Of a DNA stretch of 54,501 bases, positions 6,901-51,212 are shown one piece after another; position 1 is the first letter of the stretch, and each line of letters starts with the position of its first letter. The stretch comes from a virus (taxonomy: Duplodnaviria; Caudoviricetes). Location: the IMG/VR virus record IMGVR_UViG_3300017747_002190, positions 1-54,501 of that record; one strand, written 5' to 3'. Under the pieces are notes generated by a model that worked only from the letters and a program-made list of their open reading frames with translations, was not told where the DNA came from and did no database searches. A program made the position numbers and the translations under genes.

Positions 6901-8008
6901 GGTTGGGTCCATCACAAATTTGGACTACCTTAGCGTCAGGGATTTGGCGTTCACGCCTGGGCCGGCGACAAACGGGTCAACGCCGTACGTTTGGTATCTG
7001 GGCGGAAACTCAACAAACAGAGGAAATAACATCGGTGGCCTGTTTCAGCCAAGCACGTTTGTGGCTCCGGCAACAGGCCCGATAAAGGTGTATCAGATAA
7101 CGAATACTGCCACAACGTCTTGGACTTTTCCCGCCGACTGGAATTCAACGAGCAACTCAATTCACATTATTGGCGGCGGCGGCAGTGGAGCGACGGGTGC
7201 TGTAGCGGGGAGCAACCGCGCTGCAGGCGGCGGTGGCGGCGGTGGTGGGTGTACCGTCATTACCAACTATGTGGCGTCTCCGTCGTCGACGATCACGGTT
7301 GCGGTTGGCTCTGCTGGTTCTGGTGGCGGCGCTGGCGGCAACACCAGTTGGGATTCTGGCGCCTTCGTCGCTGGCGGCGGTCAGCCGGGGTCTGCCACAA
7401 CAACCCCATCGTCGTCTGGCGGGACTGGTGGTACGGGGGCCTATGCTGGCGGCCAGGGTGGCGCGGGTTCGTTCGGTACTACTGCGTCTCAGGGCTACGG
7501 CGCTGGAGGCGGCGGCGGCGCTGGCGGCCCCAATGGTGCTGGCGGAGCGGGCGGCAATGGGTTTGGGTCAACGACTGCTGCAAGCGTGGCTGGCGGCGGT
7601 GGCGGCGGCAACGGCGGCGGGTCTGCTGGCGGGAACGCTGCTTCTGCTGTGGGTGGAGCAGGCGGCAACAACTTTGGCGCGACGGGCGGCGGGACTGCCC
7701 CGGGCGGCGCTGGTACTGTTGGTGGTGGTGGCGCCGGCAACGTCAACACAAGCGCCGGTGGCCAGGGCGGCCCCGGCATAGACATATTGAACACCATCGG
7801 TAGCGGAGGCGGTCGAGGTGGCGCCGCTGCTGCAGCAGGAGGCAACAACACTGCAGGCGTGTATGGTGGCGGTGGTGCTGGCGGAGGAGTCTCCACGGCA
7901 GGCACGGGGTCCGCAGGCGGGAACGGGGCTCAGGGCATCATCATCATTGCGTACACACCCGGCGCCGGGGCGAACAACTCGGCGTTCCTGATGTTCTGCC
8001 GGTGGTGA
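3941..8008 (+). CDS. Large adhesin/tail-fibre-like protein, 1355 aa: three ~345-aa solenoid-like modules plus a C-terminal glycine-rich domain
   Basis: RYWVGGSGTW...VP...DSVFF-type motif recurs three times; Gly-rich tail ends GGNGAQGIIIIAY; more AT-rich than the flanking genes. Confidence 0.8.
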   Translation: MANRYWVGGSGTWNTTSTTNWSASPGGPSGASVPTSADSVFFDRTATYTVTMTGALACLDITVSAGTVTFAVGSAPTLGISGSMSLTAATIWGNTGAITFRSTVAGQTITTNGVSIGSAIVFDGVGGEWTLVGALTTTNSITVTNGTFATGIYNLTATSIASNNSNVRTINFGSSSVLCSSPTAINFTNSTNLTFNAGTSTITSAITATTVAFNGGGLAFYNVSFAATTGVAATITGANSFNNLSFAGRTSAGVQSVVFGASQTINGILTVSAGTNATMRNFLRSSTIGTSVTLTCANVSFTDVDFRDITIAGAAAPASGPRLGDCKGNSGITFTAAANKFWNLAGGGNWSGTGWALSGGGAVAVNNFPLAQDTCIFQATGLNSGATITVNASYNIGTIDMSARTANTMTLATGTTAPSIYGNWINGTGTTLTGTGTFTFAGRGAQTITSAGITFTQAFSITSRGGSVTLQDALTTSNILAIPTIEIRLGTLDLASYNLTQSGNSSQGLAIPANFGDAALSLGSGTLTIAAQGLTTFNNPSGCTVSGTGTIRMTSAFAKRFVGGSFAYTNITLDQGGAGALTIAGSNTFSNITNSYNATGAATITLTAGTTQTVSNFTASGRSGSVLTLNSSVAGSTATISKASGIVAVAYMSIQDNIATGGATWRAYTSTDLGNNTGWSITANDAFWWIVGSGTWDSATTSSWSTSPVGVAGATVPATTNDVYFYNSTTYTVTVAIGAACSTLTMLSGVVTFAGLSTSTLTVNRSMILLAGTTWSMAGVITFNSTSSGNTITTGGATISAGIVLDGAAGSWLLGDALTISKAGAGAFTLANGTVDLNGYTLSLTSSTSTFLIAAGTKSIIFDGGVITTNGAGTTAFNNANPIGFTTSAGTGNGVISLTSASTKTFVGGGSTYACAINQGGAGALTISGSNTFSDITNTYVATGATSIVFAASSTQTVAAFTATGAVGNVLTMNSSSTTRATIAYSGVGSITNLDYLSVRDLAFTPGPATNGSTPYVWYLGGNSTNRGNNIGGLFQPSTFVAPATGPIKVYQITNTATTSWTFPADWNSTSNSIHIIGGGGSGATGAVAGSNRAAGGGGGGGGCTVITNYVASPSSTITVAVGSAGSGGGAGGNTSWDSGAFVAGGGQPGSATTTPSSSGGTGGTGAYAGGQGGAGSFGTTASQGYGAGGGGGAGGPNGAGGAGGNGFGSTTAASVAGGGGGGNGGGSAGGNAASAVGGAGGNNFGATGGGTAPGGAGTVGGGGAGNVNTSAGGQGGPGIDILNTIGSGGGRGGAAAAAGGNNTAGVYGGGGAGGGVSTAGTGSAGGNGAQGIIIIAYTPGAGANNSAFLMFCRW

Positions 8009-20904: not shown

Positions 20905-22485
20905 ATGGCGACGCAATCTGTTTCATACCTCGCCGGGGAAGATCCGGGAACGGCCAAGGCCAACGCTGAGTACCAAGACGCTTTGCAGAAGATGCTTGCG
21001 GCTCTTGACTCGCGCAAGAACCGCATGTTCGACCCGCAGCTTCTTGCGCTTGCCGAGGGCTTCCTGACGCCGACGAAGACGGGATCCTTCGGCGAGAGCC
21101 TGGGCTACGCCGCGGGCAGCTTGCGTCAATCCCAGGAGCGGCAGGCCGAGCAGGACCAGAAGCTCGCAGAGGCCCGCCTGGGGCTGGCCGGCAAGGGCCT
21201 GGAGTTGGAGCGGCAGCGAGCGCGGGAGCGGGCCTTCATGCAGGAGATCGGCGCCCCCGCCGAGGCTGCGGCCATGCCTACGCCGGGCGGCCCGGCAGGC
21301 GCTGCTCCCAACGGTGCCCCGGGCGCTGTCCCGGCTGGCGGCCAGCCCGCTGCTGGCGTCGCTGCGCCGCAGGGGATTCGTGTCTCACCGGGAGCCCCCA
21401 AGTTCCCGACGCGGGAGCAGTTCCTGCGCAGGCAGATGCTGGACGGGAAGCCGCTCACTGACGCGATGAAAGCGTGGGAAGACCTGCGCAAGCAAAACGA
21501 AGAGGTCCGAGATGTTGGCACGCTGAACCGAGCCACGGGGATGTTCTATCCCAACCCCAACGTCTCTGAGGTTGAGAGGAAGGTCGGTCAGTCGACGTAC
21601 ACCATGCCGGCCGGTGTTGCTTTCCGGCTGGACGCCGCTCTTCTGTCTGGCGACCGTGAGGGCTACAACAATATGGTGAAGGAGTTCCTCGCCGGCCCGA
21701 CGGGCGAGCCTCCGAAGTCGAAACAAGAGTCGGAGATTCAGCAGGAAGAGGCCAAGACCTACGCCGCTGAGATGGCCAAGAAGGCGGCAGAGAAGGAGGC
21801 CGCGCTTGAGCAGCGCAATCAGGCTGCGCAGCGCGCTTTCGGCAGTGCCACTCGCATCATCGATCTTGCCGCGCGGAGTCCGCAGGCTCTTGGCATCTTG
21901 AATCAAGCCAATGTGATGGGTGCGATTGGAACTCTTCTCAAGGAGTCGATTCGAGTCGGCAACACGTCCGTTGGCCTTGGCGATATTGAGGGTGCGCTTC
22001 GTCAGGTCATGCCGAATGTGCAGAAGGCAGACCTTGACCGAGTTGCATTGATTGCAAGCGAATTGGCGGAAGTCGAACTTGCGTTCACGCAACTGTACTT
22101 GGCCAAGCAGGGGGCGATCACTGAAGGCGAGCGGGCGATTGTTCGACAACTTGGCGGCAGCATCAGCAACAGCGCCGAGGTGTTGATCAAGAAGTCGCAA
22201 CTGCTGGCTGCCCGGTCTCAGCATGACATGAACGTGGCTGACAAGTTCTATGCCATGAAGGACGCCGACCCCAAGTTGACGTACCTGCAGTTTGAGCGGT
22301 CCCCTGAGTACCGAGAGATGACCAAGAGGTACAACGAAGACTTGGCGCGTCAGTTCGGTGGTCAGGCTGCCGTTCCTCGGCCGGCAGGCGCCGCTCCTGC
22401 ACGACCGGCCGCTGGGAGTGTGCCATCTGGCGCGGCGCCATTCTCCGGTGCGCGTCAGCGCGTTGACCAAATGCTTGGAAGGTGA
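20905..22485 (+). CDS. Internal virion/DNA ejection protein
   Basis: LLALAEGFLTPTKTGSFGESLG N-terminus, coiled coils and QGAITEGER motif; lies in the ejection cluster. Confidence 0.6.
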   Translation: MATQSVSYLAGEDPGTAKANAEYQDALQKMLAALDSRKNRMFDPQLLALAEGFLTPTKTGSFGESLGYAAGSLRQSQERQAEQDQKLAEARLGLAGKGLELERQRARERAFMQEIGAPAEAAAMPTPGGPAGAAPNGAPGAVPAGGQPAAGVAAPQGIRVSPGAPKFPTREQFLRRQMLDGKPLTDAMKAWEDLRKQNEEVRDVGTLNRATGMFYPNPNVSEVERKVGQSTYTMPAGVAFRLDAALLSGDREGYNNMVKEFLAGPTGEPPKSKQESEIQQEEAKTYAAEMAKKAAEKEAALEQRNQAAQRAFGSATRIIDLAARSPQALGILNQANVMGAIGTLLKESIRVGNTSVGLGDIEGALRQVMPNVQKADLDRVALIASELAEVELAFTQLYLAKQGAITEGERAIVRQLGGSISNSAEVLIKKSQLLAARSQHDMNVADKFYAMKDADPKLTYLQFERSPEYREMTKRYNEDLARQFGGQAAVPRPAGAAPARPAAGSVPSGAAPFSGARQRVDQMLGR

Positions 22486-22487
22486 TC

Positions 22488-24047
22488 ATGGCCGACCTGT
22501 CGTTCATGTCCGAGTTGACCGATGAGCAGCGGCAGTACGCCGAGGTCATCAGGTCAAAGGCCCGAGAGATGGGCATCCCGCCAGAGTTGGCGGTGGCTGT
22601 CGCCTATCAAGAGAGCCGGCTGAACCCGGCAACCCCGGCGAACCGGAGGGGTGCGGTGGGCATCATGCAGGTGCGGCCGGTCGCTGCTCAAGACGTCGGG
22701 GTTGACCCGACCAAGCTGCAGGACCCGGGAACCAACATTGACGCCGGCCTGCGCTACCTGAAGAAGGCGCTGAACGAGACCGGTGACCCCAGGCTGGCGG
22801 TGATCTACTACAACGCCGGGCCGGGCCGACTGGCAGATTTCGACCGTGGCGGGGATCTCCCGAAGGAGACCGAAACCTATCTCCGGTCGCTGAAGGCCTA
22901 CGGCGCCTTCAACCCTCCGGCCGAGCAACCTGCTGCACAGCCTGCTGCAGAGGTTCCGGCTCAGTCTGCCTCTCAGTCGGGCGGAGTCGACTTTGCGGCT
23001 CTCCAGCGACAGGTTGAAGAGGGGGCAAACGCTCAAGAGCGCCGCATGGCGCAGCTTGTGGGGCTGGCCGGCGGGACTGGATTGGCTGGTGCTCGTGCTG
23101 GCGTGGACTTGGGCGCCAAAGGGGCGCAGGGAGCCGGCAAGGCGTTCGGGCAGGGGATGGCTCAGGCGGCAGCGGCTGCGGCCCCTGGCGGGGCTCCTGC
23201 GGGCCTTCCTGGGGCTCCTGGAGGACCGGGCGCTCCCGGCATGGCTCCGCCCGGGGGTGCTCCGCTGACTCCTGGCGGTACACGGCCGCCGCCGTTTGCT
23301 TCGCAGCCTGGGGCGCCGCAGGCGTTCCCTCGGGCGGTCGGGCCTGGACAGGGCGTGGTCAACACCGGCCGGGCTTTCGGGCTGACGCCAATCGAGGCGG
23401 CTCAGGCTACGGGCATGACGAAGCAAGAGGGCGGCGTCTGGGATCTGATCAACAAGGCCCAAGAGGGCCGCGGGCGGGTTGCTCAGTTGGGCGGCGGGTT
23501 CGTTGAGAATCCCATGTTTGGTGGCCTTATGACCCCGGAGCAGGGGGTCGGAGGCGGCCCCCGAGCGAGCTACGTCTCGACTGCCGGCGGGCTGCAGGCT
23601 TTGCCACCTCGCGCCCCGGTTCCCACAACCCCGCCTCCGGCCGGAGCCTTGGAGCAGGTCACGCAGACCTTCAAGCGCATGGCGGACACCGGGCTGAACA
23701 TGGCAGGCCGGGCGATGCGGTACGTTGCGCCTCCCTTGGCCATGGCTCAGGGTGCCGGTGAGCTCATCAGCGCGAAGCAGGCCATGCAGCGCGAACAGCC
23801 CGACTACCTGGAGGCGGCTCTCAGGGGCCTGGGCGGCACCGCTGCGGTGGCGAGCGCCTTCACCCCGGCCGCTCTGCCGGTGGCCGTAGGCGCTCCTCTG
23901 GCCCAGGCGTTCCGCGAGCGCATGGCTGAGAATGCCCGGCGGTTCCCGGCTGACACCCGGCCGCTGACGCCAGAGGAAGAGGAGAGGGCCAGCCGCCCGG
24001 TGACGTTCTACCGCACGGGCGACAGGCGGTTCGCGTCGAGGCCCTAG
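22488..24047 (+). CDS. Ejection protein with an N-terminal lytic transglycosylase (SLT) domain
   Basis: AVAYQESRLNP, GAVGIMQV, NIDAGLRYL, YYNAGPG and ETETYL SLT motifs. Confidence 0.88.
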   Translation: MADLSFMSELTDEQRQYAEVIRSKAREMGIPPELAVAVAYQESRLNPATPANRRGAVGIMQVRPVAAQDVGVDPTKLQDPGTNIDAGLRYLKKALNETGDPRLAVIYYNAGPGRLADFDRGGDLPKETETYLRSLKAYGAFNPPAEQPAAQPAAEVPAQSASQSGGVDFAALQRQVEEGANAQERRMAQLVGLAGGTGLAGARAGVDLGAKGAQGAGKAFGQGMAQAAAAAAPGGAPAGLPGAPGGPGAPGMAPPGGAPLTPGGTRPPPFASQPGAPQAFPRAVGPGQGVVNTGRAFGLTPIEAAQATGMTKQEGGVWDLINKAQEGRGRVAQLGGGFVENPMFGGLMTPEQGVGGGPRASYVSTAGGLQALPPRAPVPTTPPPAGALEQVTQTFKRMADTGLNMAGRAMRYVAPPLAMAQGAGELISAKQAMQREQPDYLEAALRGLGGTAAVASAFTPAALPVAVGAPLAQAFRERMAENARRFPADTRPLTPEEEERASRPVTFYRTGDRRFASRP

Positions 24048-27709: not shown

Positions 27710-28132
27710 TCAGGCAGCCGGTGCTGCCGGTGCTGACGGCTCCGCCTTCTTGCGGCCGGGGGGCGCCTTGGGCGTGCCGTCCTTCTTCCGGCCGTACGGG
27801 GCGTCAGGATCGCGCTGTACGGGCGTTTTCGCCCTGGCTGCACCCTTGGGTCGTCCGCGGCGCTTCGGAGTCTCCTGGGCCGTTTGCGGGGCCTTCGCGG
27901 CGGCTTGGGGCGCGATGACCGTCCAGTCGTCAGACAGCATGTCGGTCTGCGAGGCGAGCCAGGGCACTCGGGCGCTGCCGGCCGGGTATTCCAGGTAGAT
28001 GTACGGCAGCGTCATCCTGCTGTTGGCGTCGGGGCGCTGCAAGTGCAGCGACAAGCCCTTGCCGTTCCAGCCGTCGCGGCTGACCGAGTGCCCTTGCTTG
28101 AGCAAGGCGAGTGCGAGAGAAAAGTCCATCAT
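27710..28132 (-). CDS. DUF2829 (Tad2-like Thoeris anti-defence sponge) domain fused to a basic AT-hook tail
   Basis: FSLALALLKQGHSVSRDGWNGKG...LPYIYL...VPWLASQTDMLSDDW; tail KRRGRPKG. Confidence 0.82.
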   Translation of the reverse strand: MMDFSLALALLKQGHSVSRDGWNGKGLSLHLQRPDANSRMTLPYIYLEYPAGSARVPWLASQTDMLSDDWTVIAPQAAAKAPQTAQETPKRRGRPKGAARAKTPVQRDPDAPYGRKKDGTPKAPPGRKKAEPSAPAAPAA

Positions 28133-37635: not shown

Positions 37636-38109
37636 ATGGGACGCCCCACCACCTACAGACCAGAGATCGCAGCCAAGATCTGCAGCCGCCTCTCCAACGG
37701 AGAACCGCTGTCCACCATCTGCAAAGCAGAAGGCATCGCCGTCTCCACGGTGTATGAGTGGCTGAACCGCGAGCCGTCTTTCTCGGAGGCTTACGCGCGC
37801 GCTCGGGAGGATCAGGCGGACACGCTGGCGGCCGAGATCACGGCGCTGTCTGATGAGCCGCCGCGGCTGATCGAGGACGAGAAGGGCGTGGCCCGGGTTG
37901 ATTCCGCTTGGGTGCAGTGGCAGAAGAACCGGGTCGACGCCCGCAAGTGGGTGGCGGCCAAGCTCAAGCCGAAGAGCTACGGCGATCGAGTCCAGGTGGC
38001 TGGCGACGCCGATGCGCCGCTGAAACTCGACGCTGAGGTCAACGCTGAGAAGCTCTTCAAGACCATCCTTGAGCACGCCCAACTGACGCGGCAGGCCGCC
38101 GGCTCATAA
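37636..38109 (+). CDS. terS: Terminase small subunit
   Basis: GRPTTY...ICSRLSNGEPLSTIC...STVYEWL...YARARE...DARKW...KLKPKSYGD. Confidence 0.85.
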   Translation: MGRPTTYRPEIAAKICSRLSNGEPLSTICKAEGIAVSTVYEWLNREPSFSEAYARAREDQADTLAAEITALSDEPPRLIEDEKGVARVDSAWVQWQKNRVDARKWVAAKLKPKSYGDRVQVAGDADAPLKLDAEVNAEKLFKTILEHAQLTRQAAGS

Positions 38110-38476: not shown

Positions 38477-38682
38477 CCGACGACGAGATCGCCCAGTTCA
38501 TGGGCTGGAGCCGGGAGACGACGGCCAGGATGTCAGGCGACCCCGAGTCGTTCGTCGGGCGCACGCGCAGGCTCGTAGACGAGGCTCAGAGGCGCGAGCG
38601 CGAGCGCTGGGAGGGTGCCCTACGGTCGGAGTCCAGGACGCCGCCCTGCGCCCTCCTGAAGGCCTGCGGTGGACCTCGCTGA
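38473..38682 (+). CDS. Hypothetical protein
   Basis: GTGA coupling; MTDDEIAQFMGWSRET. Confidence 0.5.
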   Translation: MTDDEIAQFMGWSRETTARMSGDPESFVGRTRRLVDEAQRRERERWEGALRSESRTPPCALLKACGGPR

Positions 38683-40093
38683 GTCGCTGGAGGCGCCAGA
38701 CGTACAGGCGGCGCTGAAGGCCCTGCCGCCGGAGAAGCGGCTGGCGTACCTCTGGCGGTTGCGGTGGCTGCAGACGGCGCATGCTCATCAGGTGCTGCCG
38801 TCGGGGGACTGGTGGTCGGTCTGGCTGATGCTGGCAGGCCGGGGCGCCGGCAAGACCCGGACGGCCGCCGAGCAGATCGGCTGGTGGGCCTGGGAGAACC
38901 CGGGCACGCGCTGGCTGGTGGCCGCCCCGACGTCGTCTGACGTGCGGGGGACGTGCTTCGAGGGCGACTCGGGGCTGATGGCCGTCATCCCGGCGCCGCT
39001 GATCGCTGACTACAACAAGGCGCTGCACGAGCTCCGGCTGACCAACGGCAGCCTGATCAAGGGCATCCCTGCCTCAGAGCCCGAGCGCTTCCGGGGCCCG
39101 CAGTTTCACGGGGCGTGGTGCGACGAGCTCGCCGCCTGGGACTACCTGCAGGAGTCGTGGGACCAGATCCAGTTCGGCGTGCGCCTGGGGGCCAAGACCA
39201 GGACGGTCATCACGACGACGCCGAAGCCCAAGGACCTGATCATCGAACTGCTGGGCCGGGAGGGCGACGACGTCGTGGTCACCCGGGCGTCGACGTATGC
39301 CAACCTGGGCAACCTGAGCGATAACTTCCGCCGTCAGATCATGCAGTACGAGGGCACGACGCTCGGCCGCCAGGAGATTCACGCCGAGATCATCGACCCC
39401 GAGGAGGGCGGCATCGTCAAGCGGGACAGCTTCAAGCTGTGGCCGGCGGCGAAGGCCTTCCCGAAGTTCGAGTACATCCTGCAGAGCTACGACTGCGCGA
39501 CGTCCGAGAAGACCCAGAACGACCCGACGGCGTCGAGCACCTGGGGCGTGTTCAAGCCGGAAGACGGGCCGATGAGCGCGATGCTGATCGACTGCTGGCA
39601 GGACCGGCTGCAGTACCCTGACCTGCGGCCGAAGGTGGTCGACGAGTACGAGACGGTATTCGAGTCGGGCACGGACGGCCGGGATCGCAAGCGGGTCGAC
39701 CTGATCCTGATTGAAGACAAGTCTGCGGGCATCTCGCTGATCCAGGACTTGCAGCGGGCGCATCTGCCGGTGAGGGCGTACAACCCCGGGAAGGCGGACA
39801 AGGTGCAGCGGCTGAACATCGTGTCGCACATCATTGCGCGGGGCCGGGTGTGGATTCCTGAGTCGACGCAGCGGCCTGGGTATGTGCGAGACTGGGCGGA
39901 GCCGCTGGTGTCGCAGGTGTGTGCATTCCCGCAGACGACGCACGATGACCTTGTTGATACGCTAACGCAGGCGCTGCGATTCCTGCGCGATTCTGGGTGG
40001 CTGGAGGTTGATCCTCCGCCGCAGGATGATTGGGACGAGGACGACTACGCAGACACTGGTCGGCCGAAGAGGGAGAATCCGTATGCCGCGTGA
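38669..40093 (+). CDS. terL: Terminase large subunit
   Basis: Walker A AGRGAGKT, Walker B AWCDE, TTTP motif III; nuclease motifs SYDCA, IEDKSAG and HDDLVD. Confidence 0.95.
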   Translation: MDLAESLEAPDVQAALKALPPEKRLAYLWRLRWLQTAHAHQVLPSGDWWSVWLMLAGRGAGKTRTAAEQIGWWAWENPGTRWLVAAPTSSDVRGTCFEGDSGLMAVIPAPLIADYNKALHELRLTNGSLIKGIPASEPERFRGPQFHGAWCDELAAWDYLQESWDQIQFGVRLGAKTRTVITTTPKPKDLIIELLGREGDDVVVTRASTYANLGNLSDNFRRQIMQYEGTTLGRQEIHAEIIDPEEGGIVKRDSFKLWPAAKAFPKFEYILQSYDCATSEKTQNDPTASSTWGVFKPEDGPMSAMLIDCWQDRLQYPDLRPKVVDEYETVFESGTDGRDRKRVDLILIEDKSAGISLIQDLQRAHLPVRAYNPGKADKVQRLNIVSHIIARGRVWIPESTQRPGYVRDWAEPLVSQVCAFPQTTHDDLVDTLTQALRFLRDSGWLEVDPPPQDDWDEDDYADTGRPKRENPYAA

Positions 40094-40253
40094 GTCGCCG
40101 GTGGTGGCCGTGTTGGAGCGGCACGAGATGCTGGACAGGGAGGTGGAGGTGGTGGAACATCTGCCTACGCCGCAGTGCTGGTGTTTCCCGAGGCTGGAGT
40201 TTGTGGACCCGGAGACTGGCAACGAGGTGTGGATTCACCACGAGCCGCATTAG
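40083..40253 (+). CDS. Small His/Cys protein
   Basis: EHLPTPQCWCFP...GNEVWIHH; GGAG SD. Confidence 0.6.
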   Translation: MPRESPVVAVLERHEMLDREVEVVEHLPTPQCWCFPRLEFVDPETGNEVWIHHEPH

Positions 40254-40261
40254 GGGTGACG

Positions 40262-43200
40262 ATGGACTTGATGGACGACGAACTGCGCCGGGTGCTGTCT
40301 GGGTCGGTTGATGCCCCGACGGACTCGATGGCGAGAGAGCTTGCCCGCCTGCGAGTGCGCGATCGTGGTCCGACGGCGACGGAGAGGGCTGCGGCGTCGC
40401 AGCCGTCGTTCAGGATGCCGAGCTCTGGCCGGCGGCGTCCGGAGCAGCGTGGCGGCGGTGAGGCGCTGGAGACCCTGGGGTCGGCGATTGCTGGCAGTGT
40501 GCCTGCTGGGCTGGCTGGTGCGGCGGTGCTGCCTTTCCAGGGGCCTGAAGGGGCCGCCAAGACGATCAATCGGGTGCAGGACTACCTGACCATTGACCCG
40601 CAGACAGAGGGCGGCGTACGGGCTCTGAGGGGCATTGCCGGGGCACTGTCGCCATTGGGTGCGCCGGCCCAGGCTGCCGGTGATGTCACGCTGAGGGCGA
40701 CGGGCTCTCCGCTGCTGGCCACCGGTGCGGAGTTGCTGGCTGACCCTCTGAACCTGCTGGGGATCGGTGCTACTGCCAAGCCTGTTGCGCGTGCGGCTGC
40801 GGCTGGTGCCCGGCAGGCTGGGAAGGCGGCGAAGGCCACCGGGCAGAGCCTGGGCCCGAAGGCGGCGGAGATGGCCGAGGCGTACATGCGCCGGTCTGGC
40901 ATGACGCCGGAGATCACGACGTACCACGGGACGCCGCACACCTTCCCTGCTGAGCCCGGGCTGCCGCTGGGCCGGTTCCGCGCCGAGAAGATCGGCAGCG
41001 GTGAGGGCGCTCAGGCGTATGGGCATGGCATATATGTGGCCGAAACTCCTGATGTCGCAAAACAATATAGAAAAGAATTGGCTACAGACGTCAAAATTGA
41101 CGGCCAACCTTTTATGGTTGGCGGAAAGAAAATATCCACAACTGGCAACAGAACAATTGATGATTTTTTGACTTGGCACGTTGGGGATGTGGAAGAGGCA
41201 ATAAAAGCTGCGGAACGAATGGGATTTAATGAATACATACCAAAATTAGAAAACCTTAAGGGCCGTATTGAGAAAGTTCAGGGCGGTTCCTTCTACACCG
41301 TCGACCTCCCCGACCCAATGGTCGACCGCATGCTGGATTGGGACAAGCCGGTCAAAGAGCAGTCTCAGCAAGTACAGAAAATCATTCAGCAGCTTGTGTC
41401 CCAAGAAGTTGGGCAAGAAAAGGCTGCAGAACTGATGTTGCGTGATTCATTTACTGGGCAAAATGCCATGTTGCATTTGCCCGCAAAGTCTTCTATCGAA
41501 GATTCTCAAGTGTTGCGGCGTGCTGGCATCCCGGGCATCAAGTACCTAGACGAGGGCTCCAGAGGCGCTGGAGAGGGCACGCGCAACTTTGTCGTGTTCC
41601 CGGGCGAAGAGGACAAGCTGACCATCCTGCAGCGCAATGACGAGAAGCTGCCAACGAAGAAGGCCGATGGTGGCCTGATTGGAGAAACCATGAGCTACAC
41701 CACTGCGGCCGACACCATTGCTGACAAGCTGATGCGCCAGGGCATGGATCCTGACCAAGCGTTCATGACGGCGCTGCGGATGTCTGACGCGCGGATGAAG
41801 GCTGGCGGTGCTGTGCTGATGGCGGGCGGCGGAGATGCGGAGCGTGAGTTGACGCTCCAGGCCCGCAACCGCAATCTTGCGGCGCTGGACCGCGGTCTTG
41901 CCCCGAGGGCTCGCAAGACCTGGGACGGCCCGATGATTGACCGTCCCATTGTGAACGGCAAGGCGCTGGTGAGCGCTGAGGAGCTCGCTGACTTCCGCCG
42001 CCGGTTCGGCGAGAAGATGACGCTGCGCGACCTGCTGAACGCTGACAAGGGACGTGGCCCGTCTGGGGCTATGCCGGCCGCCAGAGGCGCTCAGGGCGCG
42101 AATGTGGCGCCCAGGGGCCCGCTTATCCGTCCTGATGAGGCTGCAACGCTGCCGCCTGTGGGGCTGTCGGACATCCCTGGCTTGGTCATGCGTGGCATGG
42201 CAGAAGGGGCAGAGCGCGTGCCGGCCGGGCGTGGCGCTGGGGCGGCGTTTGTCGGCGCTGGGGCGCCGCGTGCGGCGATGGCGGCCAAGACGCTGCGTGA
42301 TCATCCGTCGATCACTCCTGCGCAACGTCAGATGCTCAAGGAGATGGAGGACTACATCAGCGGGCTGAACCAAGCCGATCGGCCGGCGGTGGACCCGAAG
42401 ATCCGTGCGCTGGAGGAGCGGCTTGAGCCCCCAATGGCGGGCGGCGGGGCGGCGAGGAAGCTGACCGCGCGTGCGGCGGCCAGGGCTGAGGCAAGGCTTG
42501 CCGAGAAGGCGGCGAAGGAAGCGGCTGAGAGGGCGGCGAAGCAGGCGGCGATCGACGCAAGAACTCCGACTGAGCGGGCCGTGGTTGAGAAGTTCGGGCA
42601 GAAGCAGGAGCAGGAAGCCGCTCGGGCGAAGAAGGTGGAGCAGATCAGTCAGGCGGATGCCCCGCAGCGGGACGTCAAGCCTGCCGGCCGGCGCGTCAAG
42701 GTTGCGCCTGACGTGTACCGCGTCATGGCTGACACGCAAGGCGACGCAGCCGTGCTGCAGGCGGCCAGGGCCGGGCAGCACCTGAAGCCCACCCCGCAGG
42801 GCTACGTTGGTGCGCCTCGCACGGTGACCAACCCGCAGGCGCTTGGCGGCATGCGAAGGGCCATGGACAAAGACTTCGCGGACGCGGTGGAGGCTGTTCG
42901 ACTTGCGGATCCGGAGCGGCTCGGGACGTGGTACGACCGGGCCAAGCAAGGGATCGCCGAGAGCGCTGAACCGTACCAGTTGCCTCGCACACTGGAGCAG
43001 CATGGCGTCTACTCTGCTGGCGTCAGCCCTGAGTCAGAGTTGGGGTTCGCGCTCAAGCACCTGAACAGCCGAGCGGCCGGTGAGCCGGCGATGGCGTACC
43101 GGGGCGCCCCAATGCGCAACCTGGACGAGGCCGTCGCTCAGAACCGACCAGCGAACATGGGGTTCAAGATCGGCGAGTACATGAACAAGAACGACCCGCG

Positions 43201-44596
43201 CATCCCCAACGAGGGGCTGTTCGGCGTCAATGACTTCCGGCGGGCGCAGGGCATGGGATATACCGACCCTGCCGGCAATCCTTGGAAGGCGGGCGTGTCC
43301 GAGACCATGCACCCCTTCATGGACGCCGAGACCGCGCTGCAGGTGGATCGAGCCAACAGGGGCGCCATCGGCGGCCGTACTGATTGGGCCGGCCCGCACA
43401 TCCAAGAGGTCCCGTGGGTCTATGGCAAGGGTCAGGATCTGTACAGCCGCGGGAAGAGTGGACGGTTCGGCGGCGATGAGCTTGAAGGCATCAAGAGATC
43501 GTTGGTGGAAGCCAACAACACGGCACGCGACTACATGTACAAGCATGCGGCTTCGGCGACGCACGAGGCTGTTCCTGGCGCGTCGCTTGGGCATGTGCCG
43601 CAGGTGCTGAGCATGACCCCGGAGGAGAAGCTCGCCTATGGCAACGTCGGACGGTGGGACCGGCCGGCACCGGAGATGGAACTGAGCGACCTGCCGGGAG
43701 TCGGCGCCGGGAACCGGGACGTGCTGTACGGGGCGCTGGGGTATCGTCAGCTTCCTTCCCGGCAGGCCGAGGGGCTGTACATCAACAAGCTGGGGCAGGT
43801 TGAAACCAACCCCATGACCATTGCAAGGCCGTTGATGGATTTCCCCACCGGCGGAGGCGGGCTGATGGCCCCGGAGTCTCGCAAGGTTGCCGACACGCTG
43901 GAGCAGTTCCGAGCGTTCATGGACGCGCAAGAGGCCGGGGCGTACAACCTGCCGAACACCATGAGCGCCGTCAAGAACAAGAACTCGCTCCTCTTGGACA
44001 GCAGGAACCTGAACCCTGACAAGCTGGGCGATCCGTCTGCCGGCGTCATCCCGACGTCCGACCAGTTGGCCAGACTCAACGCCGCCATGGAGGGAACCGG
44101 CTTTGGCGTGTCCGCCACCAACCGCGGCGTCGTCGTCTTCCCGTATGACCCGACCATGGACGCCAAAGAGGCGGCCAAGATTCTGAGGAAGAAGCAGGGT
44201 GAACTGACGGCCATTTACCCGTCTGATCCGCAGAAGTCTCTGACCACCATGGGCTATGTGCCCGGCATTGGCAAGCGCAGTGCGGAGGGCCCGCTGTCGA
44301 CCGTTCCGTTCAGTGGAGAGGCCACCGGCGACTTGCTCCAGGCGTTCTCTGAACTGAACCCGGCCGTCGCGCAGAACCTCAGCGAGTCTGAATTCGTGCG
44401 CCAGATCATTCGAGACAAGGCACTGCGAGACGCGAAGCTGGGCGGCACGCGCCGCGACATCCAAGAGTCCCGCAGGTTCTTCAGCGAGGCGGATTGGCCG
44501 AAGGCGGTTGAGTTGATCCGCAAGGGCATGAGCACTGCTGCGGCGCTTGCCGCGCTGGGCTACAGCGCCAGTTCAATGGCCGAGGAAGGCCGGTGA
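40262..44596 (+). CDS. Large polyvalent protein: hydrophobic N-terminus, ADP-ribosyltransferase-like domain and putative HhH-glycosylase-like domain
   Basis: YHGTPHTF...KIGSGEGAQAYGHGIYVAE...GIPGIKYLD...NFVVF (ART-PolyVal-like); WYDRA...SAGVSP...KIGEY...NDFRRAQ...QEVPW. Confidence 0.72.
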   Translation: MDLMDDELRRVLSGSVDAPTDSMARELARLRVRDRGPTATERAAASQPSFRMPSSGRRRPEQRGGGEALETLGSAIAGSVPAGLAGAAVLPFQGPEGAAKTINRVQDYLTIDPQTEGGVRALRGIAGALSPLGAPAQAAGDVTLRATGSPLLATGAELLADPLNLLGIGATAKPVARAAAAGARQAGKAAKATGQSLGPKAAEMAEAYMRRSGMTPEITTYHGTPHTFPAEPGLPLGRFRAEKIGSGEGAQAYGHGIYVAETPDVAKQYRKELATDVKIDGQPFMVGGKKISTTGNRTIDDFLTWHVGDVEEAIKAAERMGFNEYIPKLENLKGRIEKVQGGSFYTVDLPDPMVDRMLDWDKPVKEQSQQVQKIIQQLVSQEVGQEKAAELMLRDSFTGQNAMLHLPAKSSIEDSQVLRRAGIPGIKYLDEGSRGAGEGTRNFVVFPGEEDKLTILQRNDEKLPTKKADGGLIGETMSYTTAADTIADKLMRQGMDPDQAFMTALRMSDARMKAGGAVLMAGGGDAERELTLQARNRNLAALDRGLAPRARKTWDGPMIDRPIVNGKALVSAEELADFRRRFGEKMTLRDLLNADKGRGPSGAMPAARGAQGANVAPRGPLIRPDEAATLPPVGLSDIPGLVMRGMAEGAERVPAGRGAGAAFVGAGAPRAAMAAKTLRDHPSITPAQRQMLKEMEDYISGLNQADRPAVDPKIRALEERLEPPMAGGGAARKLTARAAARAEARLAEKAAKEAAERAAKQAAIDARTPTERAVVEKFGQKQEQEAARAKKVEQISQADAPQRDVKPAGRRVKVAPDVYRVMADTQGDAAVLQAARAGQHLKPTPQGYVGAPRTVTNPQALGGMRRAMDKDFADAVEAVRLADPERLGTWYDRAKQGIAESAEPYQLPRTLEQHGVYSAGVSPESELGFALKHLNSRAAGEPAMAYRGAPMRNLDEAVAQNRPANMGFKIGEYMNKNDPRIPNEGLFGVNDFRRAQGMGYTDPAGNPWKAGVSETMHPFMDAETALQVDRANRGAIGGRTDWAGPHIQEVPWVYGKGQDLYSRGKSGRFGGDELEGIKRSLVEANNTARDYMYKHAASATHEAVPGASLGHVPQVLSMTPEEKLAYGNVGRWDRPAPEMELSDLPGVGAGNRDVLYGALGYRQLPSRQAEGLYINKLGQVETNPMTIARPLMDFPTGGGGLMAPESRKVADTLEQFRAFMDAQEAGAYNLPNTMSAVKNKNSLLLDSRNLNPDKLGDPSAGVIPTSDQLARLNAAMEGTGFGVSATNRGVVVFPYDPTMDAKEAAKILRKKQGELTAIYPSDPQKSLTTMGYVPGIGKRSAEGPLSTVPFSGEATGDLLQAFSELNPAVAQNLSESEFVRQIIRDKALRDAKLGGTRRDIQESRRFFSEADWPKAVELIRKGMSTAAALAALGYSASSMAEEGR

Positions 44597-44860: not shown

Positions 44861-47410
44861 ATGGCAACTGAGTTCCCGATCGACCCAGAGTTCAACCGCT
44901 TCGTGGAGGGCATGCCCGACGACGCCGATGGCGAGACGCCTGGGGTGGAGGTGGACCTTGAACTGTCCGAGTCGGACATCCAGGAGCTTCCTGACGGCTC
45001 TGCGGTGGTGACGCTGGACACCAACGGGCCGATGGACAACGAGGACTTCTACCAGAACCTCGCCGACAGCGACGTGCTGGACTCCATCGACCTGAACTCG
45101 ATGGCCCTGAAGTACATCCAACTGGTGGAGAAGGACCGCGAAGCCCGCAAGCAGCGGGACAAGCAGTACGAGGACGGCATCCGCCGCACTGGGATGGGCA
45201 ACGACGCCCCTGGTGGCGCCTCGTTTGCGGGTGCCAGCAAGGTCGTACACCCGGTGATGGCCGAGGCGTGCATCGACTTTGCGTCCCGCGCCATCCGCGA
45301 ACTGTTCCCGGCTGACGGGCCGACGCGCACGAAGATCCTCGGTGACGTCAATCAGGAGAAAACTGACATCGCGGAGCGCAAGCGCGACTTCATGAATTGG
45401 CAGTTGACCGAGCAAATCGAGGAATTCCGCGACGAGCAGGAGCAATTGTTCACTCAATTGCCTCTTGGTGGATCGCAATACCTCAAACTCTGGTACGACG
45501 AGGACAAAAAGCGTCCTTGTGCCGAGTTTTTGCCGATCGACAACGTGCTTTTGCCCTTTGCGGCGTCGAATTTCTACACTGCGCCGCGCGCAACGGAGGT
45601 TCATGACCTCTCAAGGTATGAATTTGAGCGCCGTGTGGCCTCAAAACTGTACCGAGATGGCAGTTTTATCCGTGCCACGATGGACCCGGAGCAGACTGCG
45701 GCCCAAAAGGCCAACGACAAGATCGAAGGACGGTCGGAAAACGACAACGAAGACGGTGTTCGTCGCGTCTACCACATCTACACATGGCTGGAACTCGAAA
45801 ACGACAGGTTTTCGAAGGGAGAGATGGCTCCCTACGTCCTGATGATCGACGACTTGGAGTCTGAGGTCATCGGGCTGTACCGAAACTGGGAGGAAGGCGA
45901 CGAAACGATGACCAAACTCGACTGGGTGGTCGAGTTCAAGTTCATCCCGTGGCGCGGCGCGTACGCCGTGGGCCTGCCGCACCTCATTGGAGGCCTCTCA
46001 GCGGCCCTTACAGGCGCTCTGAGGGCCTTGCTGGACTCTGCGCACATCAACAACGCTGCGACGCTCCTGAAGCTCAAGGGGGCGAAGGTTTCGGGTCAGT
46101 CCCAGCAGGTCGAAGTGACCCAGGTGGCCGAAATTGAGGCCGCGCCTGGGGTTGACGACGTCCGCAAGCTGGCGATGCCGATGCCGTTCAACCCGCCGAG
46201 CCCGGTGCTGTTCCAGTTGCTGGGCTGGCTCACCGGTGCGGCCAAGGGGGTGGTGACGACGGCCGAGGAGAAGATCGCCGACGTCAATGCGAACACGCCG
46301 GTGGGCACCACCCAGGCTCTGATCGAGCAGGGCGCGGCGGTGTTCTCGGCGATCCATGCTCGGCTGCACGAATCGCAGTCTCGCGTGCTCAAGGTGCTGA
46401 GCCGGATCAACCGGTGGTACTTGGACGACATGCGCCGCGGCGAGGTGGTCGAAGACCTGGAGGTTCGCCGGGAGGACTTTGCCCGGGTGACGGACGTGAT
46501 CCCGGTGTCGGACCCGCACATCTTCAGCGAGACGCAGCGGATGGCCCAGACCCAGTCGGTCATGGCCATGATGGAGAAGCATCCGGACCTGTTCAACCGC
46601 CGGGCGGTGGTCATGCGCTTCCTGAAGCAGATCAAGGTGCCGGGCGTCAACGAACTGATGACGGACACGCCTGCGCCTGAGAAGCTGGACGCGGCCAACG
46701 AGAACGTGGCGATGACGATCGGTCAGTCGGCGTTCGCGTACCTGGAGCAGGACCACTTCTCGCACATCGTGACGCATCTGAAGTACGCCTCGGACCCGGT
46801 GTTCGGTGGCAACCCGATGATCGCGCCCAACGTGCTGCCGAAGATGATGGAGCACATCAAGCAGCACTTCGCGCTGTGGTATCTGGGCCGCATGAACGGG
46901 TATGTGACGCGGTCGCTGGGTCGCAAGGCTGATGACTATGCCGAGGCAGAGGATCCGGCCGAGATCGACAAGCTGTACGGTGCGGCGGCCGGTCATGTGG
47001 CGCTGGACGCTGAGGAGACGCTTGCCAAGACGATGCCGGTGATCCAGCAGATGGTCAAGACGCTGGAGCAGTTCAAGCCGAAGCCTGAGTTGACGCCGGA
47101 CGGTCAGGTGCTGCTGCAGACGAGCATGGCTGAGACGCAGCGCAGGCAGGCGCGTGATCAGGCCGAGATGCAACTGAAAGCGGCTGACAATCAGGCCAAG
47201 CTGCAACTGGCGGCCCAGAAGCAGATGGACGACAAGGACCTCGCCATTGAGGAACTGCAGTTGAAGCTGGCCATCGCTCAGGGTGACCAGGAAACGAAGG
47301 AGCGCATCGAGACGGCCCGTTTGATGCGGGATGCGGCCCGGTTGAGGCATGACCAGGACAAGACCGTCATTGACTACTCGATGAAAGGAGCACCAAGTGG
47401 CTACCAGTGA
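44861..47410 (+). CDS. Portal protein
   Basis: 849 aa after TerL; FAGASKVVHPVMAEACIDF, LPLGGS, FIPWRGAYAVGLPHL and PVGTTQALIEQG; Gln/Ala coiled-coil C-terminus. Confidence 0.88.
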   Translation: MATEFPIDPEFNRFVEGMPDDADGETPGVEVDLELSESDIQELPDGSAVVTLDTNGPMDNEDFYQNLADSDVLDSIDLNSMALKYIQLVEKDREARKQRDKQYEDGIRRTGMGNDAPGGASFAGASKVVHPVMAEACIDFASRAIRELFPADGPTRTKILGDVNQEKTDIAERKRDFMNWQLTEQIEEFRDEQEQLFTQLPLGGSQYLKLWYDEDKKRPCAEFLPIDNVLLPFAASNFYTAPRATEVHDLSRYEFERRVASKLYRDGSFIRATMDPEQTAAQKANDKIEGRSENDNEDGVRRVYHIYTWLELENDRFSKGEMAPYVLMIDDLESEVIGLYRNWEEGDETMTKLDWVVEFKFIPWRGAYAVGLPHLIGGLSAALTGALRALLDSAHINNAATLLKLKGAKVSGQSQQVEVTQVAEIEAAPGVDDVRKLAMPMPFNPPSPVLFQLLGWLTGAAKGVVTTAEEKIADVNANTPVGTTQALIEQGAAVFSAIHARLHESQSRVLKVLSRINRWYLDDMRRGEVVEDLEVRREDFARVTDVIPVSDPHIFSETQRMAQTQSVMAMMEKHPDLFNRRAVVMRFLKQIKVPGVNELMTDTPAPEKLDAANENVAMTIGQSAFAYLEQDHFSHIVTHLKYASDPVFGGNPMIAPNVLPKMMEHIKQHFALWYLGRMNGYVTRSLGRKADDYAEAEDPAEIDKLYGAAAGHVALDAEETLAKTMPVIQQMVKTLEQFKPKPELTPDGQVLLQTSMAETQRRQARDQAEMQLKAADNQAKLQLAAQKQMDDKDLAIEELQLKLAIAQGDQETKERIETARLMRDAARLRHDQDKTVIDYSMKGAPSGYQ

Positions 47411-47558: not shown

Positions 47559-47752
47559 GGACGATCGGAGACCTGATCGGCGCGATTACGTCTAGGCAGG
47601 CTGAGATAGCCTCGTCCCTCGCTGTGGGAAATGCAGCGAACTGGGAGTCGTACCAGCGCATGATCGGACAGTACGCCGGGCTCGGAGAAGCCCTGGCGAT
47701 CCTGAACAAACTGATGGAAGACGACGATGAGCGAGATGGGCGTGGCGCTTGA
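47555..47752 (+). CDS. Small conserved head-module protein
   Basis: SLAVGNAANWESYQRMIGQYAGL. Confidence 0.7.
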   Translation: MRTIGDLIGAITSRQAEIASSLAVGNAANWESYQRMIGQYAGLGEALAILNKLMEDDDERDGRGA

Positions 47753-48161
47753 CAGCGCCGAGATGGCTTGGGCATTCCCGAGCGTGGACCCTGGCGCGAA
47801 ACCCCTTGGTGGCCGCATCCTGGTGCAACTGCGGCGAGCCAAGAAGAAGGCGACGAAGTCGGGAATCATCTTGGTCGCGGAGACCAAGGAGACCGAGAAG
47901 TGGCAGAACATGGTGGCCAAGGTCATTGAGATCGGGCCGCTGGCGTTCCGCAAGCGGGATTCGATGGAGCCCTGGCCGGAGGGAAGCTGGTGTGAAGCCG
48001 GCGACTACATCCGTGTGCCCAAGTGGGGCGGCGACCGTTGGGAGGTGAAGGTTCCGGGCGAGGATGACCTCGAAGACCCGGCGCTGTTCATGATCCTGAA
48101 CGACCACGAGGTGATCGCCAAGGTCACCGGCAACCCTCTTGAAATGAAGGCGTTCCTCTGA
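47727..48161 (+). CDS. groES: GroES-like co-chaperonin (Cpn10)
   Basis: KPLGGRILVQ...TKSGIILV...AKVIEIGP...GDYIRVPKWGG...ILNDHEVIA. Confidence 0.85.
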   Translation: MSEMGVALDSAEMAWAFPSVDPGAKPLGGRILVQLRRAKKKATKSGIILVAETKETEKWQNMVAKVIEIGPLAFRKRDSMEPWPEGSWCEAGDYIRVPKWGGDRWEVKVPGEDDLEDPALFMILNDHEVIAKVTGNPLEMKAFL

Positions 48162-50297: not shown

Positions 50298-51212
50298 ATG
50301 GCAGCTCCGATGAGAAGTACCGACTTTCGTTCAATCGTCGAACCGATCCTGAACGAATGCTTCGATGGCGTCTACGACCAGCGCACCGACGAGTGGTCGC
50401 GGGTCTTCCGCGAACAGCAGGGCATCCCCCGCAACTACCACGAAGAGCCCGTGCTCTACGGGTTCGGCGCGGCGCCGCAACTGCCGGACGGCACGCCTGT
50501 GTCGTACCAGCAGGGTGGTGTGCTGTTCCTGAAGCGCTACGTCTACAACGTGTACGGTCTGGCGTTCGCGCTGACCAAGGTGCTCGTTGAGGACGGCGAC
50601 CACATCCGCATCGGGCAGGTGTATGCGCGTCACCTCGCGCAGAGCCTGATTGAGACGAAGGAGACGCTGTCGGCCAACGTGCTGAACCGCGCCTTCAACT
50701 CGTCCTACCCGGGCGGCGACGGCGTGCAACTGAACAGCAACGCCCACCCCATCGTCAACGGGACGTTCAGCAACCTGCTCTCTACGGCCGCGAACCTCTC
50801 GCAGACGTCGCTGGAGCAGATGCTGATCCAGATCCGTCAGGCGGTGGACAACAACGGCAAGAAGATCCGTCTGGTGCCTCGCCAATTGGTGGTGGCCCCG
50901 GGCAACGTCTTCCAGGCCGAGGTGCTGCTGAAGTCGGTTCTGCGTGCCGGCAACGCCAACAACGACATCAACCCGATCAAGTCGATCGGTCTGCTGGACG
51001 AGGGCGCGGCGGTTCTGTCGCGTCTGACCTCGGCGACCGCATGGTGGGTCCAGACCGACGCGCCGGAGGGCATGAAGCTCCTGATGCGCCGGAAGCTGGA
51101 GAAGACCATGGAAGGCGACTTTGAGACGGACTCGATGCGCTACAAGGCGACCGAGCGCTACGACGTCGGCTTCACCGATCCGCGGGCCATGTACGGCACG
51201 CCGGGCGTCTGA
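50298..51212 (+). CDS. Major capsid protein
   Basis: 304 aa; AAGGAGG SD; GLAFALTKVLVED, ANVLNRAF, GGDGV, LSQTSLEQML, DFETDSMRYKATERY and DPRAMYG; followed by a hairpin. Confidence 0.9.
   Translation: MAAPMRSTDFRSIVEPILNECFDGVYDQRTDEWSRVFREQQGIPRNYHEEPVLYGFGAAPQLPDGTPVSYQQGGVLFLKRYVYNVYGLAFALTKVLVEDGDHIRIGQVYARHLAQSLIETKETLSANVLNRAFNSSYPGGDGVQLNSNAHPIVNGTFSNLLSTAANLSQTSLEQMLIQIRQAVDNNGKKIRLVPRQLVVAPGNVFQAEVLLKSVLRAGNANNDINPIKSIGLLDEGAAVLSRLTSATAWWVQTDAPEGMKLLMRRKLEKTMEGDFETDSMRYKATERYDVGFTDPRAMYGTPGV

Follow-up and report, generated by a model that had tools for sequence, protein, structure and literature searches.

A modular protein encoded between the TerL and portal genes of an uncultured tailed phage combines an ART-like domain, a DUF7178-related chassis and GG joint motifs

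Polyvalent proteins of phages are thought to be injected weapons of counter-defense and host take-over. To our knowledge, how their modules come together, are loaded and part again has been worked out in few cases only (T4, P1 and N4). Here we describe P0002, a 1444-residue protein encoded in a 54,501-base stretch of DNA (the window), which is the complete virus record IMGVR_UViG_3300017747_002190, with direct terminal repeats at its ends and podovirus-like gene content. We regard P0002 as probably (roughly 55%) a polyvalent, or multi-effector, cargo protein on a conserved C-terminal chassis, which would enter the head and reach the host along with the DNA. Its unrelated modules are an ADP-ribosyltransferase (ART)-type domain, a small helical unit, a small α/β unit and the chassis; relatives add ART-PolyVal, LPD23 and PcfJ.

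The closest described systems are the polyvalent proteins of phages and plasmids (Iyer, Burroughs, Anand, de Souza and Aravind 2017, PMC5512222). As portrayed in the main text of that study, they resemble P0002 in joining unrelated effector domains, in carrying ARTs of the His-Tyr-Asp (H-Y-D) type and LPD domains (the latter in relatives of P0002), in their location among portal and terminase head genes and in extensive domain shuffling. P0002 differs in having no zincin metallopeptidase, MuF or virion RNA polymerase (vRNAP) module, the zincin being frequent but not obligatory there, and in having a DUF7178-related C-terminal chassis and a defined GG joint motif. The main text of PMC5512222 uses the words "glycine" and "linker" 0 times, a count outside which stand the FTP supplements with all domain lists, and the chassis may already be listed there as an LPD.

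Two further systems bear comparison; PMC5512222 summarizes the first and mentions the second. T4 Alt and the other internal proteins, and the Dar proteins of P1, include enzymes (an ART in Alt) that are packed in the head and co-injected with the DNA, as we propose for P0002; loading proceeds via a short targeting element or partner proteins, and some are cleaved. Unlike P0002, Alt belongs to the R-S-E clade; P0002 is unrelated in sequence to the T4 targeting peptide and to the Dar proteins, and no prohead protease was seen. Toxins anchored by MuF or SPP1 gp7 likewise pair a conserved head-protein chassis with interchangeable effectors. The P0002 chassis is unrelated to theirs and is C-terminal, not N-terminal, and its gene precedes the portal gene.

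A first-pass annotation, made by a model from the sequence without database searches, had placed the P0002 gene between TerL and portal, and Pfam (TerL) and PHROGs (portal) matches agree:

38669-40093, + strand: large terminase subunit TerL, left neighbor of the polyvalent gene (PF03237, 5.2e-24; PF17289, 3.8e-09)
40262-44596, + strand: whole gene P0002, 1444-residue polyvalent protein (open reading frame and translation; 271 homologs at E≤0.001)
44861-47410, + strand: portal, right neighbor of the polyvalent gene (phrog_1216, 8.3e-18)

The reading frame of P0002 runs from an ATG at 40262 to a stop at 44596, with an AGGGG-type ribosome site just upstream. It is open further 5′ to a GTG at 40175, yet the homolog P0003 likewise begins MDLMDDELRR. 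A search through 5.8 billion proteins led to 8000 scored candidates, of which 271 are relatives at E≤0.001; 120 of these relatives are listed. P0002, scanned whole and as five pieces, matched no family in Pfam, PHROGs or NCBIfam, and neither the protein nor either profile found a match in PDB by sequence. Searched by tblastn against 50,697 phage records, P0002 matched four, all within the ART-like domain only; the chassis had no match at E≤1e-5 in these records.

AlphaFold2 (AF2) models, read by their per-residue confidence (pLDDT), together with comparison of homologs, divide the protein as follows:

40442-40876, + strand: Ala/Gly-rich, partly hydrophobic N-terminal region, residues 61-205 (low-confidence helices, AF2 pLDDT mostly 30-63)
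40910-41656, + strand: divergent ART-PolyVal-like domain with a ~130-residue insert, residues 217-465 (AF2 block, pLDDT 70-93)
41657-41680, + strand: joint motif 1, KKADGGLI, residues 466-473 (pLDDT <50 at residues 465-477; exact start of the 97% identity with P0004)
41696-41797, + strand: small helical unit, residues 479-512 (AF2 helices 479-492 and 497-517, pLDDT 73-86)
41795-41839, + strand: joint motifs 2 and 3, MKAGGAVLMAGGGDA, residues 512-526 (pLDDT <50 at residues 514-530)
41840-42433, + strand: middle segment, residues 527-724 (AF2; 97% identical in P0004)
42434-42454, + strand: joint motif 4, MAGGGAA, residues 725-731 (pLDDT <50 in both models: residues 717-740 in one, the first five residues of the C-terminal piece in the other)
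42449-42556, + strand: long Ala/Lys/Glu-rich helix entering the chassis, residues 730-765 (AF2 helix, residues 6-41 of the C-terminal piece)
42719-44581, + strand: conserved C-terminal chassis, distantly DUF7178-related, residues ~820-1440 (HMMER, alignment, AF2 and hhalign)

The strings quoted in the first-pass annotation all lie where it had put them: KKADGGLI at residues 466-473 (41657-41680), MKAGGAV at residue 512 (41795), MAGGGDA at residue 520 (41819) and MAGGGAA at residue 725 (42434). The Gly/Ala hydrophobic N-terminus that it described is also there, residues 61-205 being 24% Ala and 16% Gly. The most hydrophobic 19-mer of this region, residues 72-90, is borderline (Kyte-Doolittle 1.59). 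The region is conserved in P0003 and P0008, and residues 140-218 recur at the N-terminus of P0004. The middle segment comprises a helix, the small α/β unit (552-595), a long disordered stretch (597-675) and another helix (686-704). The AF2 model of residues 1-740 is poor overall (pLDDT 58). Its first-ranked Foldseek match was a chain of the cyanophage A4 pre-ejectosome (PMC12002296; E 2.7e-3, TM score 0.13), which we judged too weak to use and which probably reflects the long helices.

Comparison of homologs supports the proposed modularity. The C-terminal ~645 residues are common to 116 of the 120 listed homologs, at 54-82% identity, while N-terminal parts vary from 130 to 1219 residues and carry ART-PolyVal, LPD23 or PcfJ (Pfam). 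Four homologs (P0023, P0026, P0038 and P0046) show the converse arrangement, with N-terminal and middle parts as in P0002 and another C-terminus, which in P0023 and P0038 carries DUF7178. P0004 is identical to P0002 at 955 of 983 positions (97%) from residue 467 (KADGG) to the end, and upstream of KADGG it has LPD23 and a canonical ART-PolyVal instead of the ART-like domain of P0002. P0003 has the N-terminus of P0002 and an additional ART-PolyVal inserted before KADGGLIGE; its identity to P0002 drops ~40 residues past MAGGGAA. An additional ART-PolyVal cassette also occurs in the polyvalent gene of one IMG/VR locus (L029). Since L029 is 98% identical to the window in TerL and 99% in portal (100% in Cpn10) but just 68% in the chassis, the polyvalent gene is internally mosaic, and this divergence indicates recent recombination inside it, as judged from the sequences. 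The cassette swaps in P0004, P0003 and L029 therefore make the gene a mosaic of cassettes, a hallmark of polyvalent proteins in the main text of PMC5512222. The expectation that homologs would swap exactly at GG motifs held for the P0004 junction at KADGG and failed at the left edge of the ART cassette (residue ~218), which has no motif.

The chassis, near-solo in most phages, has gained N-terminal add-ons in this lineage, and these vary among close relatives: ART-PolyVal, LPD23, PcfJ or, in P0002, the ART-like domain. We propose that P0002 is a late product that is taken up into the head and passes to the host along with the DNA, whereupon the ART-type domain would modify a host target using NAD+. 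The chassis would be the part that belongs to the virion or the ejection apparatus.

Domain make-up and gene order bear out the earlier description of a polyvalent modular protein in the head-gene cluster. In 42 of 53 IMG/VR loci, the chassis gene adjoins a TerL homolog, in the order TerL, chassis gene, portal. In 11 loci of another backbone, it is the last gene of the structural module, just before exonuclease and primase genes. Both placements fit a virion-associated protein, as context and not as proof. The alternative, that P0002 is not packaged and is a late cytoplasmic enzyme or assembly factor merely placed in the head-gene cluster, draws on the invariant polar residues of the chassis (S918, K969, D991, D1021 and E1023), which suggest an enzyme, and on the related phages that manage without any gene at the TerL-portal site. 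It accounts less well for the presence of the gene in structural modules of two unrelated backbones, for a domain repertoire that is that of polyvalent proteins held to be packaged (main text of PMC5512222) or for the polyvalent proteins among the structural neighbors of the chassis in BFVD. We consider it decidedly unlikely.

The loci of the second backbone are L034 (9506-12073), L017-L019, L030, L031, L033, L050, L053, L055 and L039. Their chassis are 61-69% identical to that of P0002, with the last 45 residues nearly identical, and lie next to exonuclease and primase-helicase genes.

The chassis is a large family in its own right. HMMER, run exhaustively over 1.84 billion cluster representatives (clusters at 50% identity), returned 496 matches at E≤0.001, 195 of them at E≤1e-30. 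Most are solo proteins of 700-900 residues in which the match covers all but the first 100-250 residues, and matches usually begin ~100 residues into the 720-residue query piece. In an alignment of 82 sequences, 14 residues are invariant: R820, G850, P852, R865, W890, Y891, S918, K969, D991, D1021, E1023, R1030, Q1048 and W1052. Because all 14 lie in the helical first half of the chassis, the alignment suggests that this half holds an active or binding site. The helical subdomain spans residues 820-1095, and an α/β subdomain takes up 1095-1440.

The AF2 model of the chassis is confident (pLDDT 93.8, predicted TM score 0.91), and Foldseek found no fold match to it in the PDB (best E 0.086, TM score at most 0.13). 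The 82-sequence profile likewise found no PDB sequence at E≤1. Against BFVD, 13 matches at E≤0.001 were obtained, all of them uncharacterized or polyvalent proteins of uncultured tailed phages, several labeled as LPD-, RelA/SpoT- or SleB-containing. Homology to DUF7178-type proteins emerged by hhalign, which aligned the chassis with the DUF7178-bearing C-terminus of P0023 (residues 1100-1716) at 99.6% probability (E 6.5e-25, 498 columns). The nearest Atlas clusters are also DUF7178 (score 0.87), which we take as a lead only. P0002 itself does not match PF23802 (DUF7178), and the profile-profile homology is to the DUF7178-bearing C-terminus, the chassis being longer (~620 residues vs the 193-position model). 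A literature search found no paper mentioning DUF7178.

The first-pass annotation had read the C-terminal ~720 residues as a helix-hairpin-helix (HhH) DNA glycosylase-like effector, and the confident model and the DUF7178-type homology do not bear this out. The one match in that direction is a noise-level Pfam hit to RecR_HhH (E 0.19, 9 residues), and no glycosylase is found among the Foldseek matches in PDB or through the 82-sequence profile. We give the glycosylase reading almost no credence.

The second well-delimited module is the ART-like domain, which had been predicted to end at KKADGG; residues ~217-465 do form such a block, of probable ART type. With residues 204-473 as query, 1468 of 3244 candidates (474-2000 residues long) proved to be relatives at E≤0.001, and these carry fusions to GNAT, ParB, Dcm, SLT, LPD23, canonical ART-PolyVal or DUF7178. 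ART-PolyVal (PF18760, of the Tox-ART-HYD2-like clade) is likewise often fused to GNAT, ParB, Dcm and SLT, and it shares with the P0002 domain the N-terminal motifs YHGT...GxY...A..Y and an invariant H-Y-D triad. Unlike ART-PolyVal, the P0002 domain misses the Pfam model (no match to PF18760 even at E≤10), carries a ~130-residue insert between the Tyr and Asp strands and often co-occurs with a canonical copy. Two of its homologs exceed the PF18760 cut-off of 31.2 within the homologous region (P0373, 37.5 bits; P0312, 31.5 bits). An hhalign comparison of 67 copies of the domain with 30 canonical ART-PolyVal sequences gave 93% probability over the YHGT...GxY...A..Y block, in the N-terminal 34 columns only.

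His222, Tyr258 and Asp430 are invariant in a 49-sequence alignment of the domain, as are E248, D348, D351, D359, R434, N442 and E450. The triad residues lie on or beside predicted strands (219-224, 257-260 and 425-429), with Asp430 on the strand (IKYLD) that precedes RNFVVF. At non-significant E-values (0.2-0.9), Foldseek places proteins of ART fold at ranks 3-10 (MbcT, cholix toxin, exotoxin A and tankyrase; TM score 0.31-0.38 to target). The RNFVVF strand, lacking the usual Glu, had earlier been taken as a sign of atypical chemistry. ARTs of polyvalent proteins belong to the H-Y-D clade, with a His-Tyr-Asp configuration (main text of PMC5512222); the absence of Glu is therefore expected, and Asp430 is invariant, so that view does not stand. 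We treat residues 217-465 as a putative insert-bearing subfamily of H-Y-D ARTs, a distinct one because the domain often stands beside a canonical ART-PolyVal in one protein (P0003 and P0365). As a separate observation, the same genome encodes on the - strand (27710-28132) a protein with a Tad2-like (Thoeris anti-defense 2) domain (PF11195, E 1.6e-20), its second NAD-signaling-related counter-defense gene.

The modules are separated by a joint element of the form [M/Y/F/K]-[A/K]-x-GG(G)-x-[V/I/L], of which P0002 has four. Motifs 2 and 3 are conserved in P0003-P0009, P0011, P0012 and P0027. Motif 4 is the commonest left edge of conserved blocks in comparisons with P0002 (39 comparisons, vs 18 for residue 764 and 16 for residue 633). 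In the AF2 models, the low-confidence joint segments, predicted to be disordered, flank folded units. The proposal that GG motifs sit at domain joints thus stands for the extended motifs; it does not for bare GG, which is unspecific, with seven of 12 runs in P0002 inside folded domains (residues 287, 341, 862, 1037, 1070, 1197 and 1394).

The element is enriched well beyond composition. Residues 455-740 hold 8 instances of a loose pattern, which may count one site twice, vs 0.65 in shuffles, and 0 of 2000 shuffles reached 8. Across 116 relatives, the strict motif occurs at 0.557 per 100 residues in the variable parts (344 sites) vs 0.011 in the chassis (8 sites). The tight form is found in none of the TerL, portal, Cpn10, p312 and major capsid protein homologs of the loci. 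In all-against-all BLAST, the modal left edge of the C-terminal block lies ≤10 residues from a GG run in 88 of 116 proteins (26.7% for random positions) and ≤10 residues from a strictly defined site in 66 of 116 (10% for random positions). One or more sites occur in 85 of 88 proteins whose N-terminal extension is ≥400 residues long vs 17 of 122 in which it is <250 residues (Spearman 0.76).

The motif extends beyond P0002 and its homologs. A portal search matched 18 of 50,697 phage records, the best being uncultured phage MW202545.1 (63.7% identity), followed by Caulobacter phages of RW type (46.5%), Roseobacter phages CRP-901/902 and pelagiphages HTVC027P/023P. The relevant genes of the window, beyond those given above, are:

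37636-38109: TerS, Sf6-type
47727-48161, + strand: phage Cpn10, GroES-like (PF00166, 30.4 bits vs cut-off 21.1; mobile loop KKATKSGIILV)
50298-51212: capsid protein, 304 residues
51946-52914, + strand: GG-repeat protein P0123, 322 residues, net charge +30, two genes past the capsid gene, with the motif 14 times

P0123 is probably disordered and consists largely of [Y/M/F]-[K/A]-x-GG-x-[V/A] repeats; its motifs include KKGGEV, YAAGGKV, YATGGRV and FKDGGKV (loose pattern 19 vs 1.0 in shuffles; 0 of 2000 shuffles). Wherever the downstream DNA of this backbone reaches far enough (11 loci, counting the window and MW202545.1), a homolog with 14-24 runs is encoded. Both ends of the family are conserved (N-terminal MGQFKPMVKM..., C-terminal ...KKRGG..C with a terminal Cys). 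Of 8000 scored candidates, at least 4937 belong to it at E≤0.001, and no member has a name.

Unrelated proteins in the TerL-portal gap carry the motif as well. MW202545.1 (locus L001, 6227-8899) encodes there an 890-residue GP88-domain protein with motifs KAKGGQV, KAEGGNV, MAKGGVA and YAEGGGV, and BLASTP found no homology between it and the chassis. In the same gap, HTVC027P (locus L059, 15711-19842) has the unrelated genes gp41 and gp42, with KIKGGII, KADGGRI and MAVGGRV; hhalign of the chassis with gp42 found no homology, and a 112-residue protein of this phage has four motifs. In phages RW and CRP-902, this site holds no cargo gene, and a motif-rich protein is likewise missing. Since the motif recurs in unrelated accessory or internal proteins of one phage lineage, it is a lineage trait and not that of one family, and its distribution points to a common reader. 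As a side observation, the TerL-portal gap appears as a cargo hot spot: RW has only a tRNA-Val there, and CRP-902, empty at this site, has extra genes after portal. Also in the window, at 3941-8008 (+ strand), a glycine-rich protein of 1355 residues with 45 GG runs adjoins the tail-fiber gene and has no Pfam, PHROGs or NCBIfam match.

From this distribution, we read the GG element as a putative short linear recognition tag that would be read by one factor of the lineage's head pathway. Our slight, and still tentative, favorite for its role is multivalent docking, in which the elements would bind a repeated component of the head and the GG-repeat protein would be the main ligand or matrix. In its favor we count the tandem arrays 8-13 residues apart, the existence of a repeat protein devoted to the motif and the conservation of hydrophobic anchors at -3 and +2.

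Proteolysis offers another role. Clan CE proteases cut the virion polyproteins of adenovirus and African swine fever virus at GG-X, and a targeting peptide is removed from T4 internal proteins. If GG elements were cleavage sites, a cut after or within GG would free the effectors of the polyprotein and convert the GG-repeat protein into small basic peptides. The appearance of the motif with added modules and its rarity in solo forms (85/88 vs 17/122) would agree with this, as would the accessible, low-confidence joints and the small residues at -2 to +1. Polyvalent proteins have moreover been proposed to be processed into units, and DarA and DdrB of P1 are cleaved (main text of PMC5512222). No protease was found, however, among the 36 window proteins scanned with Pfam or those scanned with PHROGs (~20-30 small open reading frames lie outside the scan), the sole peptidase match being the S74 chaperone domain of the tail fiber; a host enzyme may serve instead. 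The 304-residue capsid protein has no propeptide-sized extension, and P0002 and the homologs scanned lack the zincin peptidase that polyvalent proteins usually have. Sites 8-13 residues apart, 14-24 of them in one small protein, are also more than module release needs. We consider cleavage possible, and only slightly less likely than docking.

A simpler role is that of flexible, recombination-tolerant linkers with no recognizing partner, in-frame fusions surviving best in disordered Gly-rich spacers. The disordered joints, the link with added modules, the motif-free swap points and the lack of an identified partner would all suit such linkers. They would not explain why the positions flanking GG are conserved (Y/M/F at -3, A/K at -2, V/I at +2) across proteins of very different composition, non-homologous ones included, why a separate protein with conserved ends is largely made of the motif, or why the motif is missing from TerL, portal, Cpn10 and p312 homologs. 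We consider mere linkers unlikely.

The resemblance of the motif to the GroES mobile loop (E. coli KSAGGIVL vs P0002 MKAGGAVL and KKADGGLI) raises a further possibility, that it engages host GroEL, for example in folding or refolding large cargo, in phages that encode Cpn10. All three motif-bearing lineages examined encode Cpn10. The A-G-G-x-V-L core is common to E. coli GroES and one P0002 site; in the family consensus, V/I at +2 is all that remains of it, +1 is often charged and the hydrophobic triplet is missing. Moreover, the phages' own Cpn10 loops (ATSAGIILV) have a single Gly, and RW and CRP-902 encode Cpn10 yet have no motif proteins. A complex prediction of the GroEL apical domain (CH60_ECOLI 191-376) with P0002 residues 455-535 gave a score of 0.02 (mark 0.34) and, being without controls, is uninformative either way. 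Such mimicry seems to us very improbable. Whatever probability these four roles leave over falls to others.

A broader proposal, with the odds clearly against it, is that [M/Y/F]-[A/K]-x-GG-x-[V/I] would be a portable cargo code of this lineage, read by one head-pathway factor: whichever module adjoins it, be it ART, PcfJ, LPD23, GP88-like or chassis, would be taken into the capsid, perhaps with trimming, together with the basic GG-repeat protein as a dedicated matrix. In its boldest version, the code would imitate the GroES mobile loop and borrow host GroEL.

Several observations weigh against P0002 as a packaged cargo protein with GG joints. Its presence in virions and its injection are predictions from genomic context, and P0002 itself has no Pfam match to ART-PolyVal or DUF7178; the Foldseek matches of the ART-like domain to ART folds are non-significant (E 0.2-0.9). 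Breakpoints without a motif occur at residues ~218, ~633 and ~764, and the enrichment of high-scoring segment pair ends near strict motifs is no more than about twofold (13.1% vs 6.9% within 5 residues), the modal edge of the C-terminal block giving the clearer signal. Many family members are closely related, so that counts overstate independent events. Low confidence at the joints is partly an artifact of shallow alignment, because the N-half model is poor overall. Solo chassis proteins mostly lack the motif, which speaks against a need for it in chassis loading and fits cleavage or a linker at least as well. No clear motif is seen in the second backbone with the chassis, and the association of cargo gene and GG-repeat protein amounts to three lineages with both and two with neither.

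The window also contains an SU10-type adaptor, a lysozyme, an SLT-domain protein and tail-fiber genes. Three of its genes, all on the + strand, are listed jointly:

22482-24047, + strand: SLT-domain protein, 521 residues
14981-19906, + strand: coiled-coil protein, 1641 residues
10453-12468, + strand: tail fiber with a Peptidase_S74 chaperone domain

The SLT-domain and coiled-coil proteins are likely ejection or internal proteins. The Cpn10 gene sits between portal and scaffold-like genes and is present in all relatives examined, including RW, CRP-902 and HTVC027P.

The chief new facts are a DUF7178-related chassis with a confident orphan fold, an insert-bearing subfamily of H-Y-D ARTs and a lineage-wide GG motif common to unrelated cargo proteins and an abundant GG-repeat protein. 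The chassis (496 clusters) and the ART subfamily (1468 homologs) are sizeable unexplored families. With a chassis that is conserved, effector cassettes that can be swapped and a joint motif that is short and defined, the P0002 family offers a testable grammar. Should the motif be a code for loading or processing, it would explain how new effectors are recruited by simple recombination, and it would offer a way to bring proteins of choice into the capsids of laboratory phages.

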